Source: a virus
Virus record (IMG/VR): IMGVR_UViG_2871727361_000001
Location: 2,590 to 66,589 of that record
Length of the DNA stretch: 64,000 bases
Strand: one strand, 5' to 3'
Position 1 is the first letter of the stretch; each line of letters opens with the position of its first letter. This document shows positions 11,345 through 43,611 of this stretch, piece after piece. The position numbers and the translations under genes are program-made. The notes beneath the pieces were generated by a model. The model saw only the letters and a list, made by a program, of their open reading frames with translations. It had not been told where the DNA came from and did not search any database.

Positions 11345-11475
11345 AAGAACAGTGCTGCGCAGACTGTGGAATACCGCTGTCGCCCGATGAGGCGTGGGTG
11401 TGCGATGACTGCAGCGCGTTTTACGCGATATTCCGAGATCCGAATGGTGATATGACTGGAGGGGACGATGGTTAA
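11341..11475 (+). CDS. ninF: NinF-like zinc-finger protein (44 aa)
   Basis: CADCGIPLSPDEAWVCDDC between ninE and ninG. Confidence 0.7.
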   Translation: MKEQCCADCGIPLSPDEAWVCDDCSAFYAIFRDPNGDMTGGDDG

Positions 11476-12043
11476 AGGCAAGCCGCCAAAGCCGAAGAAG
11501 TGTAAAGCCTGCTCTGAGAAATTCATCCCCCGCAACACCCTGCAAACCGCCTGCTCTCCAAAATGTGCCATCCAACTCGCTAAGCAACTCACCCAGCGCA
11601 AGCAACAGCGCGAGGAGAAAGAGCGGCGTGCTGCATGGAACAAGCGCAAGGCCGATGTAAAGCCATTAAGCCACTGGATGAACATGACCCAGCGAGCATT
11701 CAACGACTACATCAGGGCGAGAGACGGAGATATCTGCATCAGCTGCGGCAGTACAACGGCGGTCAGCTATCATGCCGGCCACTACCGAACGACGGCTAAA
11801 GCATCGCAATTGCGGTTCAACGAGGACAACTGCCACAGCCAGTGTTCAGCCTGTAATACTCACCACTCCGGCAATATCGGTCCATACCGCATCAACCTCA
11901 TAGCAAAAATCGGCCCTCAGCGCGTCGAGGCACTCGAAAACAACAATACACCACACCGATACACCAGAGAGGAACTGGAACGCATCAGAGCGCGTTACAG
12001 GGCTTTGCTGCGTGAATTGGTAAAGCAGAGGGAGGCAGCATGA
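11468..12043 (+). CDS. ninG: NinG/Rap endonuclease
   Basis: KKCKAC..CSPKC, CISCG, HAGHY, FNEDNCHSQC..CN. Confidence 0.93.
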   Translation: MVKGKPPKPKKCKACSEKFIPRNTLQTACSPKCAIQLAKQLTQRKQQREEKERRAAWNKRKADVKPLSHWMNMTQRAFNDYIRARDGDICISCGSTTAVSYHAGHYRTTAKASQLRFNEDNCHSQCSACNTHHSGNIGPYRINLIAKIGPQRVEALENNNTPHRYTREELERIRARYRALLRELVKQREAA

Positions 12044-12147
12044 CCTGGCTAAAGAAATTACTCAGCAGATTCCGGCCTATCACTCCAGCAGTGCAGCCAA
12101 CCCATGTGCAGTCATGGGACGCTAATCCGAGAAGGAAGAAACGATGA
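12040..12147 (+). CDS. Small hypothetical protein (35 aa)
   Basis: MTWLKKLLSRFRP..., ATGA overlaps at both ends. Confidence 0.45.
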   Translation: MTWLKKLLSRFRPITPAVQPTHVQSWDANPRRKKR

Positions 12148-12767
12148 GAATCGAAAAAGACTATCAGCAGATTGTCAGGCTTTCCGGCGTGCGCTCTGCT
12201 GCTGATATGCGTCGGTTGTTTGGCAATGGCTGGAAAACCATCAACACCTCTCAGCAGGCATGGATACGACACCTGTTAACAGTGTGGGGTGATCACTTAT
12301 CTGGCGACGAGTACGAGCGCGGGGAAGTTAACGTGATAGGCCGCCTCATGATGCGCTGCGAATGGAGCGAGCAGAAGGCTAGGCAAATTGAAAGGGTAGT
12401 AACAGAGCTTCACTGTGAGGGCTACAGAGGGGAAGAGCTTATGCGCAAGGCGCGCGATATTCTGGTTCCACAATCATCCGCAAGCAACATCATCGCTCTC
12501 GCCAAAGAATCAGATGATGCTGCTTTCATGGAATCAGTAATCGTTAAGACCTTCGGGCGTGACAATCCCCTCCGCTCTGTAGCCAGATTACGATACTGCA
12601 AGCGCAAGAGCGCGCAAAACATTGCTTCAAGTCTGATTTACTTCACCGGCATCACGCCGAAGGAAGCCAGAAACAGAATGGAATGGGCGCAAAATATCCT
12701 TGAAGGAGAATTGTTCTATGCTGTTAAGCGTGAGCGGGAGAAAGAAATTACTGCAATCGCTGCATAA
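12144..12767 (+). CDS. Q: Late antiterminator Q
   Basis: Last gene of nin region, followed by a leader and strong terminator. Confidence 0.8.
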   Translation: MRIEKDYQQIVRLSGVRSAADMRRLFGNGWKTINTSQQAWIRHLLTVWGDHLSGDEYERGEVNVIGRLMMRCEWSEQKARQIERVVTELHCEGYRGEELMRKARDILVPQSSASNIIALAKESDDAAFMESVIVKTFGRDNPLRSVARLRYCKRKSAQNIASSLIYFTGITPKEARNRMEWAQNILEGELFYAVKREREKEITAIAA

Positions 12768-12916
12768 TAGCACAAATTGCTAAAGACAAAGGGCAATAAA
12801 CCTGGCACATTGCATATATGCTCGGGAAGCAAAGCGAACTGAGCGCGGTGATGACGAGGAAGTAAGTAAACGGCGGATATAAGCCCATTGGCATTCAGCT
12901 GAAGCATCACCGTAAG

Positions 12917-12946
12917 AAGCCCTAGCGTAACTGCTGGGGCTTTTTT
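12917..12946 (+). terminator. tR'-like terminator
   Basis: AAGCCCTAGC-GTAACT-GCTGGGGCTT + TTTT. Confidence 0.8.
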
Positions 12947-13031
12947 ATTTGTGCCATATTGTCGTTTTCGACGAAATGGTAACGCAAGCCGATGAGCGGT
13001 CATGAGGAACTGCGGCCCCGGCAAACAATAA

Positions 13032-13108
13032 GCAGCATTGGCTCAATCGGATAGAGCAGCGGAGTTCTAATCCGCCGGTTACTGGTTCGAGTCCAGTATG
13101 CTGCACCA
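13032..13108 (+). tRNA. tRNA-Arg(UCU), phage-encoded, unusual G32
   Basis: 77-nt cloverleaf: GCAGCAT/ATGCTGC, A20, loop GTTCTAA, GGTTCGAGTCC, CCA. Confidence 0.92.
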
Positions 13109-13159
13109 ATTTCAAAGTTCGCCACAGGGCGGCCTTTTTTATTCATAGGAGCATAGTCA

Positions 13160-13423
13160 ATGCTGGCATCAATTAAGGCCGACACCAGCGGCATTGAGAG
13201 AAAACTGCAGGCATTACTTGAAGTGCTTCCCGAACATATTCCTGACCAGTTCGGCAGCATGTTGTCTGACCTGGTCGACAATATCATTCTTGTGAATGGT
13301 ACGCCCGCAGTTGTTGCAGGTGGTTCCTTCGATATCGTTTGTGTCTGTGATTTCAGTGGGACCGCTTACGACGAGGTCATGGCCGCAGCCAGGGCATTTA
13401 AAGCTGACAGTGTCGCTCATTAA
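13160..13423 (+). CDS. Hypothetical protein antisense to zinc-finger gene
   Basis: 87 aa, AGGAG RBS; conflicts with opposite-strand ORF. Confidence 0.4.
   Translation: MLASIKADTSGIERKLQALLEVLPEHIPDQFGSMLSDLVDNIILVNGTPAVVAGGSFDIVCVCDFSGTAYDEVMAAARAFKADSVAH
13214..13420 (-). CDS. Small zinc-binding protein
   Basis: CPGC...CNNC, GGAG RBS before ATG 13420. Confidence 0.7.
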   Translation of the reverse strand: MSDTVSFKCPGCGHDLVVSGPTEITDTNDIEGTTCNNCGRTIHKNDIVDQVRQHAAELVRNMFGKHFK

Positions 13424-13510
13424 ATACTCCATATCTGTAAGGTTATTTTTGGCGATTTAACGATAACAGAAATGGATATGACCAGCCAGAAGCTATCTGG
13501 CGCCAATTTT

Positions 13511-13536
13511 AAGGCTCACTTCGGTGGGCCTTTTTT
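13511..13536 (+). terminator. Intrinsic terminator
   Basis: AAGGCTCAC-TTCG-GTGGGCCTT + T run. Confidence 0.8.
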
Positions 13537-13615
13537 CATATCTGCACAACAGATAAGCCTCCTGACGTGTAATTGCCTGGCAATGAACGCGTGTTGTGAA
13601 ACAGGGGGCTTTTCG

Positions 13616-13687
13616 TTGTGGTGAATGTACCGATGGCGTCGTTACGCGATAGCCGTGAATGCCGGATAGGGGCGACGGTCACCGCAA
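13616..13687 (+). ncRNA. Second C4/CI-like structured RNA
   Basis: TTGTGGTGA/TCACCGCAA closing stem, GGTGAATG motif, 3' GCCG..CGGT hairpin; preceded by long hairpin AAGCCTCCTG/CAGGGGGCTT. Confidence 0.45.
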
Positions 13688-13723
13688 ACCAACATGCCGC
13701 AGGCTTAAGTGGTAATTAGAAAT

Positions 13724-13903
13724 TTAATTTTGCGGTTTTTTCAAAAGAAACAATTCCCAAATTGCGGGATGCATTTTCCTGTCTCCAGCTTCCCAGAACT
13801 GCCAGCTGCGTAACGTGCTGTGTACCAGCTTAGCGCATTGGGACTGAGTAAGGCGAGCCGCAGATCTTGCGGCTCTTATTTCTTCAGGTGATGGGGTTAC
13901 CAC
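13724..13903 (-). CDS. Small XRE-HTH regulator (Aca-like)
   Basis: 59 aa TPSPEEIRAARSAARLTQSQCAKLVHSTLRSWQFWEAGDRKMHPAIWELF; GTG start overlaps upstream stop. Confidence 0.85.
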   Translation of the reverse strand: MVTPSPEEIRAARSAARLTQSQCAKLVHSTLRSWQFWEAGDRKMHPAIWELFLLKKPQN

Positions 13904-14073
13904 GCTACCACCCATTCGCCATCGTTTTTTTCAAAAACAAACATTTCAGCGGCATCTTCGCCATATTCGCTGTTCAGCCAGTTTGCGCATTCAACCGCCT
14001 CTTGCTGAGTGGCAAAGGTTTCATCGTTGTATGCTGTGATAGTTTTGGTTGGGCTTCCGATGATAACGCTCAT
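13897..14073 (-). CDS. Small acidic protein, candidate anti-defence (Acr-like)
   Basis: 58 aa, 11 D/E vs 2 K, RBS AAGGAG, own promoter. Confidence 0.7.
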   Translation of the reverse strand: MSVIIGSPTKTITAYNDETFATQQEAVECANWLNSEYGEDAAEMFVFEKNDGEWVVAW

Positions 14074-14115
14074 TTTTATCTCCTTGCTAAGGCGGTGTTG
14101 CCTTTCGATGGGTAA

Positions 14116-14144
14116 ATAATACGAACAATGTGCGTATTGATCAA
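14116..14144 (-). promoter_or_regulatory. Strong sigma70 promoter with inverted-repeat operator
   Basis: TTGATC-17-TATTAT; IR AATACGAAC-AAT-GTGCGTATT (14118-14138) spans the spacer. Confidence 0.8.
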
Positions 14145-14182
14145 GTAACATTTTTACCTGATAGCACAAATTGCAAACACGC

Positions 14183-14259
14183 GCTCGCATAGCTTAACTG
14201 GTTAAAGCGCCCGGCTCATAACCGGCGGAGTGCAGGTTCAAGCCCTGCTGTGAGCACCA
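14183..14259 (+). tRNA. tRNA with CAU anticodon (Ile2 more likely than Met)
   Basis: Cloverleaf GCTCGCA/TGTGAGC, loop CTCATAA, CCA; paired 1-72 so not fMet; C27-C43 mismatch. Confidence 0.85.
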
Positions 14260-14264
14260 AAAAC

Positions 14265-14290
14265 AAAACCCGCACAGTGGCGGGTTTTTT
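14265..14290. terminator. Bidirectional terminator
   Basis: AAAACCCGC-ACAGTG-GCGGGTTTTTT. Confidence 0.8.
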
Positions 14291-14404
14291 CATGTCTGTT
14301 TCAGGTGTTTTCTTTTCAGTCGCGTGGAAAGATTAACCGGACTCGCTCAGTAAATGATCCAGACAATTCCCAATTTGAACGAGTCCCCTGACGGGGGTGG
14401 AAAC

Positions 14405-14650
14405 GTGAAAACTATGCCTGACAAAATCGCATCGGCAGCCAGCTATTGCGTATCCGGCACATTAGTCTGTGGAGGTAGCGTGTCACAGTGGCTGCATGAC
14501 CTCGACTGGAACCTGGTTGCAGTGATAAGCGGTATCGTGATTGGTATCGCGACATTTATGGTTAATCTGTATTTCAAGCACAGGCAGACCAAAGCATACG
14601 AGCAGGCCCTTCAGCGCGGATACACGCCGGCGCCACCACAGGAGCAGTGA
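14405..14650 (+). CDS. S: Class II (pin)holin with dual start
   Basis: GTG-AAA-ACT-ATG (M-K-T-M) dual-start like phage 21 S; two TM segments, NLYFK motif. Confidence 0.85.
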
Positions 14651-15138
14651 AAATGGCCGTATCATCGTCCCTGCGGAAAAAGCTGATCGCTGCCGCTGGT
14701 GGCGGTGCGATCGCAATAGCTGCTGTGCTCATTCCGCCATTTGAGGGTGTCGAGCACAAACCATATCAGGATGTCGTCGGTGTCTGGTCGGTTTGTTATG
14801 GGCACACAGGGAAGGACATCATCAAAAGCAAAACCTACACCGAACCCGAGTGTCAGGCATTGCTGAATAAAGACCTGCGAACGGTGGCCAATCAGATTGA
14901 CCCTTTAATTAAGCGTCCGATCCCCGATACCACGCGAGCGGCTCTCTACTCGTTTGCATATAACGTCGGCGCTGGAGCATTCCGCCAGTCAACCCTGCTG
15001 AAGAAAATAAACGCAGGCGACACGGCGGGGGCATGTAACGAGCTACGCCGCTGGACCTACGCGGGCGGACAACAGTGGAAAGGGCTGATGAACCGGCGTG
15101 AGATTGAGCGTGACGTGTGTCTTTGGGGGCAGCAATGA
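14647..15138 (+). CDS. R: SAR endolysin (GH24 lysozyme)
   Basis: Ala/Gly-rich SAR segment, [29 protein letters not shown]. Confidence 0.95.
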
Positions 15139-42800: not shown

Positions 42801-43611
42801 CGCTATGTCGTCCCGTCTGGAGGAGCTGGGTGCCCGCACTGACACGGCCAGCGGCGGCGTGCAGAACAACGCTATCGCACTGATCAACAATGCTCTGGCT
42901 CAGGTCAGCCAGCGCAACCTACTGAGCGTTCAGTACCGGGACAACAAAGCGGGGATTGAGCGCGTAGATAACGTCATGGCCGACGCGAGTCAGGCTGTAG
43001 CCGAGTCCCTGAAAACGTTGGATGCGAGCGCAGGCGCCGGTAGTGGCAACGCGACTGATTTCGCGCAGGTGATGGCTGATTTTTCGCAGGTTTCGGCGAC
43101 TAAAATCAACTCGCTCAGCGTGACTGTGAACGGTCAGAGCGCCGTAATAAATCAGACCGCGCAGGCTTTGGCCGATGTCAACGGCAATCTCAATGCGATG
43201 TACAGCATCAAAGTTGGGGTCGACTCAAACGGTCGTCAATATGCTGCTGGGATGGGCATTGGGGTGCAGAATACGCCTGCTGGGATGCAGTCGCAGGTGC
43301 TGTTTCTGGCAGACAGATTTGCGGTTATGTCTCAGGCCGGCGGCGCAGTGTCATTGCCGTTTGTGATTCAAAACGGCCAGACATTTATCCGAGAAACGTT
43401 TATTCAGGACGGGACTATCGGCAACACAAAAATCGGCAACTATATCCAGTCAAATGATTATGCACCAGGAACATCAGGATGGAGGCTAGATAAGGGCGGT
43501 AACTTTGAGATAAACGGTGTTGCCGGAGGGGGTAGGATGCTTATTTCAAGTAACTTAATTCAAATCTTCGATGGCAATAATGTCCTGCGCGTAAGAATGG
43601 GGTTATGGTAA
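39847..43611 (+). CDS. J: Central tail fibre / host specificity protein J
   Basis: 1254 aa; GAKGGS, RLRYPHTAL, WTNNPAW, FnIII region, YAAGMGIG..SQVLFLADRFA. Confidence 0.95.
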   Translation: MATISGAKGGSQKQHTPVEQQDSAQSMARCRMLLALGEGEFAGQLTEGGIYLDGTPLGNADGSMNFENVSWDFRPGTQTQEPIPGFPAVENETTIGVALTNATPWTRALSNTQIDAVLVRIGITGLQQQENNGDIVGATITYHIDVATDGGAYETVMTKTVNEKLSSLYELTHRINLPKSSTGWQIRVVRDTADSSTQLLQNKTQVQAITEVIDARLRYPHTALLYVSFNAKSFNNIPRISCKPKGRIIRIPSNYDPLARTYMGTWDGTFKWGWTNNPAWIWFDVLTEPRFGLGRRVKPDMLDKWELYRIGQRCDQQVPDGNGGNGKEPRFMFDAYIQSQADAWQVIKDIAAGFNGMTFWGNNMFNVVSDMPVDTSKLQILTRASVVGKPTYSSGSEKNRYSSALINFSDPENHYQDRTTAVIFPDLVKQFKFKQTQITAIGCTRESEAQRRGGWAVYSNSLDRIITLQTGLDGYVYVPGTVFAFADERLSGRVYGGRITGYNAVLKAVTTDRGTSAVAGDTLMIRTQGGTVESRVIQSVNGTQLVVATPFTAAPLSNAVFVIDAGQLRLQYFRVTNLRFDDEENTFTITGAEYNASKYDAVDNNARLDTPPISLIPTGLVAQPGNISVSGYDSVRQGQRVATLVATWDAPLDKSGKPQADIVAYQIQWKRGESQWINTPETGLRNIEVVGIFAGDYLVRVRAINSAGASSLWATSALTQLSGRMGDVPKPIGLTATDDVVFGINVSWSFPANTGDTLKTEIQYSLTGSDADAMLLADVPYPQRKYQQMGLKAGQIFWYRAQLVDRTGNESGYTEWVRGQASIDVSDITDAILEEIKDSEVFQSLIENAVDSSEKLAGLAEAIRENADGLAAAVGSNKQTAEAIIGNSLAIADVVVRQSAQQGANSAKFEQLREVIATESEARVTDVTRLEAKTSQNESGLTEVRQTLANETEARTTAVNELTAKTEQNRADVTDLTQAVTTLDSAMSSRLEELGARTDTASGGVQNNAIALINNALAQVSQRNLLSVQYRDNKAGIERVDNVMADASQAVAESLKTLDASAGAGSGNATDFAQVMADFSQVSATKINSLSVTVNGQSAVINQTAQALADVNGNLNAMYSIKVGVDSNGRQYAAGMGIGVQNTPAGMQSQVLFLADRFAVMSQAGGAVSLPFVIQNGQTFIRETFIQDGTIGNTKIGNYIQSNDYAPGTSGWRLDKGGNFEINGVAGGGRMLISSNLIQIFDGNNVLRVRMGLW

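Follow-up and report, generated by a model that had tools for sequence, protein, structure and literature searches.

An Aca10-type regulatory cassette with a small acidic cargo gene: a candidate anti-CRISPR operon in a lambdoid prophage

A short cassette that runs against the late genes of a lambdoid prophage raises the question of whether it is an anti-CRISPR operon and, if so, what its cargo gene would act upon. The cassette occupies positions 13724-14144 on the minus strand of the window, by which we mean the whole 64,000-nucleotide stretch that was analyzed, and it comprises a promoter, an operator, a ribosome-binding site, an acidic ORF, and an overlapping gene for a helix-turn-helix (HTH) protein. 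As a preliminary description of this DNA had stated, it is inserted antisense between two phage tRNA genes, tRNA-Arg (TCT; 13032-13108, plus strand) and tRNA-Met (CAT; 14183-14259, plus strand), and it lies immediately upstream of the lysis genes. The late region, to which the cassette is antisense, contains NinG (11468-12043), a 207-aa ORF at the Q position, and, beyond tRNA-Met and a terminator (14265-14288), a P21-type holin at 14354, after which come lysozyme and Rz. A weak terminator-like stem with a T-rich tail (13755-13769, minus strand) marks the 3′ end of aca10. When compared with deposited phages and complete E. coli genomes by megablast and blastn, the cassette, taken as a 551-bp sequence, had no match. 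We read it as an acr-aca10-type operon, a self-contained accessory cassette of the prophage, and give this reading a probability of roughly 0.55. The layout of an acr-aca operon had already been proposed in the preliminary description, and that proposal was right, more specifically than its reader could know: the HTH protein groups with the Aca10 family and the promoter palindrome with its operators.

The HTH gene (P0002; 13724-13915, minus strand) encodes 63 aa from ATG 13915 or 59 aa from GTG 13903, and the latter start overlaps the stop codon of the cargo gene as GTGGTAA. Translational coupling of a 59-aa HTH protein, as originally suggested, is plausible because the homologue in L003 (related loci carry L numbers here) has an ATG at exactly the position of GTG 13903. 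Among PDB sequences, a single-sequence phmmer search with P0002 found one strong match, the 65-aa "transcriptional regulator" 7XI5 (E = 1.1e-20; residues 5-60 against 3-58, of which 35 of 56 are identical, ~62%), and a profile of 14 homologues matched the same entry at E = 2e-30. [quoted passage not shown] Matches in the family libraries were weak (HTH_31 at 5e-4, the best in Pfam; Aca2_YdiL at 0.013; the MqsA C-terminus), and NCBIfam gave a VC1465-type N-terminus at 2.8e-10.

Work on Aca10 has assigned DNA binding to Q22, Q37, and the critical R44, and dimerization to H30, G49, E52, and K57 (PMC9410881). The DNA-reading residues Q22, R34, Q37, and R44 correspond to Q24, R36, Q39, and R46 of P0002 and are all conserved, as are H30, E52, and K57 of the dimer salt bridge (H32, E54, and K59 in P0002); G49 of the dimer interface is replaced by Ala51, and Ala is also found there in several homologues. 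Membership in the Aca10 family is further indicated by homology to WP_074980464.1 / PDB 7XI5, the HTH_31 type, the length of 59 or 63 aa, the position as the last gene of an operon with variable upstream genes, and a 21-bp palindrome that overlaps the gene's own promoter. Judged by these features, the HTH protein is very probably an Aca10-type autorepressor.

The promoter TTGATC-17-TATTAT reported in the preliminary description is present at 14144-14116 (minus strand), with the -35 hexamer at 14139-14144 and the -10 hexamer, recovered by a promoter scan, at 14116-14121. It is the sole promoter-like match in 12700-14700, a region whose shuffled versions average 2.6. An inverted repeat in the spacer had been described as 9 bp long; the repeat exists, and its length is to be corrected to a 21-bp, 10-1-10 palindrome (14118-14138) with one mismatch, whose arms of 10 nt each (14118-14127 and 14129-14138) stand 1 nt apart and are 90% complementary. 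It takes up the promoter spacer and extends into the -10. Aca10 is known from EMSA to bind a 21-bp palindrome, IR2, made of two 10-bp half-sites 1 bp apart (Lee et al. 2022, PMC9410881), which is located inside the acrIC7-acrIC6-aca10 promoter, overlaps its -35 and -10, and can be reduced to a minimal 19 bp (PMC9410881). The window palindrome has the same base as the EMSA-proven IR2 of P. citronellolis at 18 of 21 positions, with identical outer ATACG/CGTAT, and keeps the same register relative to the -10 (CG abutting TATT). A degenerate form of the operator pattern has one occurrence in the 64-kb window, where 0.03 would be expected, and without mismatch it is found a single time in the whole 3.79-Mb genome. 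By sequence, then, the palindrome is an Aca10-type operator. Elsewhere in the genome, whose G+C content is 60%, sites resembling the operator with 1-2 mismatches were considered chance matches. The same layout, TTGnnn-operator-TATAnT-CATCGAAA/CATGGAAG, also precedes the aca10 homologues of L003, L004-9, L010-12, L013-14, L016, and L028.

The Shine-Dalgarno sequence AAGGAG was correctly placed in the cassette and sits at 14085-14080 (minus strand), 6 nt ahead of the ATG at 14073. A 5′-UTR RNA motif has been predicted for aca10 operons (PMC13551039), and the cassette has a possible 5′-UTR hairpin of 5 pairs with a 6-nt loop (14089-14104, minus strand), which is kept in L003 with one compensatory pair; as two sequences, the hairpins give a weak hint of a common element. 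Over the -35 hexamer lies an 8-bp palindrome, TTGATCAA (14137-14144), that includes a GATC Dam site. Its position corresponds to that of IR1, the palindrome that covers the -35 in the P. citronellolis promoter and is not bound by Aca10.

The acrIC7-acrIC6-aca10 operon of P. citronellolis (Leon et al. 2021, PMC7913775; PMC9410881) shares with our cassette a terminal HTH repressor of the same family, a 21-bp, 10-1-10 operator in a strong promoter, and small cargo upstream. The two differ in cargo, which here is one acidic protein of 58 aa with no characterized relative in the family, PDB, and fold libraries compared, and in host, which here is of enterobacterial type with type I-E and not Pseudomonas. 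The promoter spacer is 17 nt here and 16 there, the operator of the window has three changed inner bases and one arm mismatch, and the regulator has Ala in place of G49. The acr-aca operons of Enterobacterales also have Aca10 homologues downstream of small acr-type genes, with self-repression via an inverted repeat in the core promoter, and in Rahnella, homologues of AcrIF17 are found in linkage with Aca10 (Shehreen et al. 2022, PMC9410906); the cargo of the window, in contrast to theirs, is no recognized Acr.

Whether other genes swap into the slot upstream of the HTH homologues was a question that the preliminary description had raised, and at least seven unrelated cargo sets were found there. 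The homologues of P0002 are 61-74% identical to it, and each is preceded by an overlapping or abutting gene that differs between elements. Proteins of 146 aa and 50 aa fill the slot in L004-9, conjugative-element-like loci with DUF932, ParA, and relaxase; an 82-aa protein is found in L010-12, a 115/90/145-aa set just upstream of a holin in L013-15, an 85-aa protein in L016, proteins of 81 and 133 aa in L027, and a 192-aa protein in L028. An all-against-all BLASTP of the cargo proteins (58, 82, 85, 145, 146, 192, and 81+133 aa) detected no kinship except a C-terminal tail of 13-21 residues common to three, and no Pfam family was found for the upstream cargo proteins. L028, from a genome of the same GTDB family, is the clearest instance of exchange: the operator of its aca10 cassette matches at 19 of 21 bases, the cargo is an unrelated 192-aa gene, and the cassette is antisense and directly upstream of a holin and lysozyme homologous to those of the window, so that the same slot carries different cargo.

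The tail shared by three cargo proteins, AGQHVSHAPGRA, ends the otherwise unrelated cargo of L004 (4564-5004), L010 (3756-4004), and L013 (2685-3122), all with Pseudomonas-type aca10. Because it is common to the three, the aca10 module seems to recombine at a junction that falls within the 3′ end of the cargo gene. In addition, aca10 cassettes are repeatedly found beside lysis genes: that of L013 (1906-3328, on a Pseudomonas-type phage contig) is upstream of the holin, that of L003 adjoins a lysozyme cluster, and that of L028 is upstream of holin-lysozyme. The lysis-gene junction seems to be a preferred insertion point for these cassettes. The closest widespread Aca10 homologue, P0008 (18 contigs), is found in conjugative-element-like loci, where its neighbors are DUF932, ParA, NikA-like, relaxase, and topoisomerase III genes (L005 641-1465, 5460-6185, 7675-7988; L004 9690-10192). 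Its three-gene operon (50 aa, 146 aa, aca10) has an operator with 19 of 21 bases as in the published one.

The cargo gene of the window, P0001 (13897-14073, minus strand), is the candidate anti-defence or anti-CRISPR gene. It had been described as coding for a very acidic 58-aa protein, and its composition bears this out, with 11 D/E, 2 K, no R, and a pI of 4.05. The AlphaFold model is confident (pLDDT 83.5) and predicts a beta-beta-alpha-beta-beta mini-fold. We found five relatives, two from a word-indexed search of 5.8 billion clusters and three more, of 54-57 aa, from an exhaustive HMMER search of 1.84 billion representatives; 400 other genomes of the same family did not yield the protein, nor did 50,697 phage records searched by tblastn. 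Compared with its two close homologues, at 76-78% identity, P0001 has a dN/dS of 0.09-0.18, which marks it as a real gene under purifying selection. Two other readings of this DNA were set aside. A 97-aa reading from ATG 14190 would begin within tRNA-Met, ahead of the promoter, and the start of every homologue is at M-S/A-V/I; an 82-aa plus-strand ORF (13867-14115) was taken for an antisense shadow, since the substitutions follow the pattern of the minus-strand frame.

The preliminary description had recognized no named Acr in the acidic protein, and our searches agree with it. Nothing above threshold was obtained from Pfam, PHROGs, NCBIfam, and PADLOC. The best Pfam values of the family were 0.021 for DUF2188 and 0.005 for BetR (four of six members), all under the gathering score required for placement in DUF2188 or the BetR C-terminal region. 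PDB sequences gave no match, and fold comparison with PDB and BFVD (Foldseek), VIA-align, and Atlas returned only generic small alpha/beta matches. Exact short motifs of the cargo had no counterpart among the supplementary sequences of Pinilla-Redondo et al. 2020 (PMC7648647). Across these sequence and structure searches, no link to a known Acr or to an anti-defence family or fold was found in the general family, PDB, and fold libraries, a comparison outside which AcrIC6, AcrIC7, and AcrIE9 lay. P0001 is new and unclassified, while its regulator family and the acr-aca10 architecture are already known. AcrIF2 and most AcrIC proteins are small acidic Acrs that keep Cascade from binding DNA (Leon et al. 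2021, PMC7913775), and P0001 resembles them in its small size, its strong acidity (pI about 4), and the position of its gene ahead of an aca gene in a mobile element, but it has no sequence or fold similarity to them. That P0001 might act by DNA mimicry is a guess made from its charge.

Genes of the P0001 type are also found away from aca10. In L001/L002, such a gene lies antisense in the same Q-to-holin slot with no aca10, under a different promoter without the operator and with its own terminator, and a distant relative, P0019, stands alone between the portal and MuF genes in a gap of the phage head module (L022-24). By this distribution, the acidic gene is an independent module.

The host genome (3.79 Mb, 59.9% G+C) is of enterobacterial type and has one complete type I-E locus, in which cas3, cse1, cse2, cas7, cas5, cas6e, cas1, and cas2 (L019; C33:87795-96352) are followed by an array of 41 spacers (C33:85186-87717). 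All cas genes are open, and each matches its Pfam family. Self-targeting spacers, which the preliminary description had suggested looking for in the host, are present: spacers 4, 8, and 22 match the prophage, all imperfectly, and no comparable spacer match was found elsewhere in the host genome. The protospacer of spacer 4 (31/32, mismatch at 13, PAM ACG) lies 613 bp left of the window and right of the integrase; that of spacer 8 (30/32, mismatches at 2 and 15, PAM AGA) is at 42862-42893 in the tail J-like gene of the cassette's prophage; and that of spacer 22 (27/32, mismatches at 18, 24, 27, 29, and 31, PAM AAA) is at 1524-1555 in an ORF of the prophage early region. All three PAMs are non-consensus when read by the orientation rules of E. 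coli, with which the repeat and the order of cas genes and array agree and which may not suit this Cse1 variant, and one of the protospacers has a seed mismatch. In the E. coli type I-E model, ACG is a reported priming PAM, AGA can allow priming without interference, and the effect of AAA is spacer-dependent (PMC4678831).

Judged by its spacers, the host array clearly remembers this phage lineage. None of the three protospacers is a clean lethal self-target, a situation compatible with mutational tolerance or with a need to suppress priming. Since the self-targeting is imperfect, the prophage may be tolerated without any inhibitor, and the spacers raise the odds of an anti-CRISPR role without proving it. 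The host Cse1 is itself a variant, only 21-24% identical to most homologues in the family, and with this query it was not found in the one other genome of the genus.

Because regulator and operator match Aca10, the acidic partner is a good candidate inhibitor of host CRISPR immunity, and we consider P0001 a candidate anti-CRISPR on the basis of its aca10 linkage, the complete type I-E system of the host, and the three imperfect self-targeting spacers. For the cargo as an anti-defence protein in general, our judgment leans in favor. That it is specifically a type I-E Acr is a possibility that we hold tentatively, and we are as cautious about the proposal that P0001 founds a new family of type I-E anti-CRISPRs in enterobacterial temperate phages, blocking Cascade or Cas3.

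A serious, if doubtful, alternative accepts the Aca10-autoregulated operon and gives its cargo a role other than anti-defence, as a host-takeover factor, a regulator, or a superinfection-exclusion factor, or else sees the function in convergent transcription that this strong promoter directs against the late operon. The location speaks for it, as the cassette adjoins lysis genes in several elements (the window, L003, L013, and L028), and so does the lack of detectable similarity between P0001 and any Acr; Aca-like regulators are, moreover, not always linked to known acr genes (PMC9410906). Weighing against this, a slot occupied by unrelated small proteins is a pattern typical of counter-defence loci, and the founding aca10 operon bears validated Acrs (PMC7913775). 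Two further points count against it: a gene of the acidic type is found at a distance from lysis genes, in a head module, and the host CRISPR array remembers this phage.

A toxin-antitoxin pair had been named as an alternative in the preliminary description; a type II module of this kind, in which an acidic toxin is neutralized, and its gene repressed, by a HigA/MqsA-like HTH antitoxin, appears very improbable. A small protein followed by a translationally coupled HTH protein does resemble higBA and mqsRA, the HTH protein has weak matches to HigA-2 and the MqsA C-terminus, and Aca10 is structurally close to HigA2 (PMC9410881). However, the acidic gene is found without an HTH partner in L001/L002 and L022-24, and an antitoxin-dependent toxin would not occur alone. 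The HTH family is paired with at least seven unrelated upstream proteins, so its partner is not conserved as it is for HigA2/MqsA-type antitoxins, and with 59-63 aa the HTH protein has little beyond its DNA-binding domain and no extra domain for binding a partner. The cargo is acidic, and no match of any kind to a toxin fold or family (RelE/ParE, MqsR) was obtained. Least probable of all is a decaying or silent remnant without function in the prophage, which the extreme rarity of the family might suggest but which is at odds with two intact ORFs, a preserved promoter, operator, ribosome site, and coupling, a dN/dS of 0.09-0.18, and conserved key Aca10 residues.

Under the acr-aca10 reading, the near-consensus promoter would drive the 58-aa acidic cargo together with the translationally coupled Aca10-family HTH protein. 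By homology to Aca10, a dimer of the latter would bind the 21-bp palindrome between and over the -35 and -10 and shut off the operon. Upon DNA entry, the cargo would be made in a burst and then repressed to a low maintenance level, following the Aca paradigm of burst and subsequent repression (PMC9410881, PMC9410906, PMC12658196). The acidic protein would inhibit a host defence, with the type I-E Cascade or Cas3 as first suspects, and might let a prophage that is partly recognized by the array, at priming-type PAMs, persist without primed autoimmunity.

The locus provides a clearly delimited candidate in the 58-residue protein, whose fold model is confident, and a regulator/operator pair that can be compared by gel shift with a published standard. 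Its particular value is the natural setting, in which the prophage that carries the cassette is itself a partial target of the host's complete type I-E system. The locus also adds evidence for the Aca10 promoter-operator-repressor unit as a portable chassis that can be used to find cargo genes, in settings that include lambdoid prophages, often beside lysis genes, and conjugative-element-like loci with relaxase, ParA, and DUF932 neighbors. If the cargo is not anti-defence, the locus would be an example of Aca10-type switches in the service of other accessory functions.

The surroundings of the cassette hold further features. The 207-aa Q-position ORF between NinG and the tRNAs (12144-12767, plus strand) had no Pfam match at E <= 0.001. 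Between the tRNAs lies a second antisense gene (13214-13432, minus strand), encoding a 72-aa CxxC...CxxC zinc-ribbon protein of the NCBIfam ECs_2282 family (E = 3e-20) that also has a weak match to PADLOC PDC-M14A (5.9e-5). Between this gene and aca10, a plus-strand stem-loop region (13485-13541), with a stem-loop followed by a T-run at 13511-13532, gives a weak, sub-threshold Rfam match to a TarB-like element (E = 0.035) and could be a small RNA or a terminator of the late operon.
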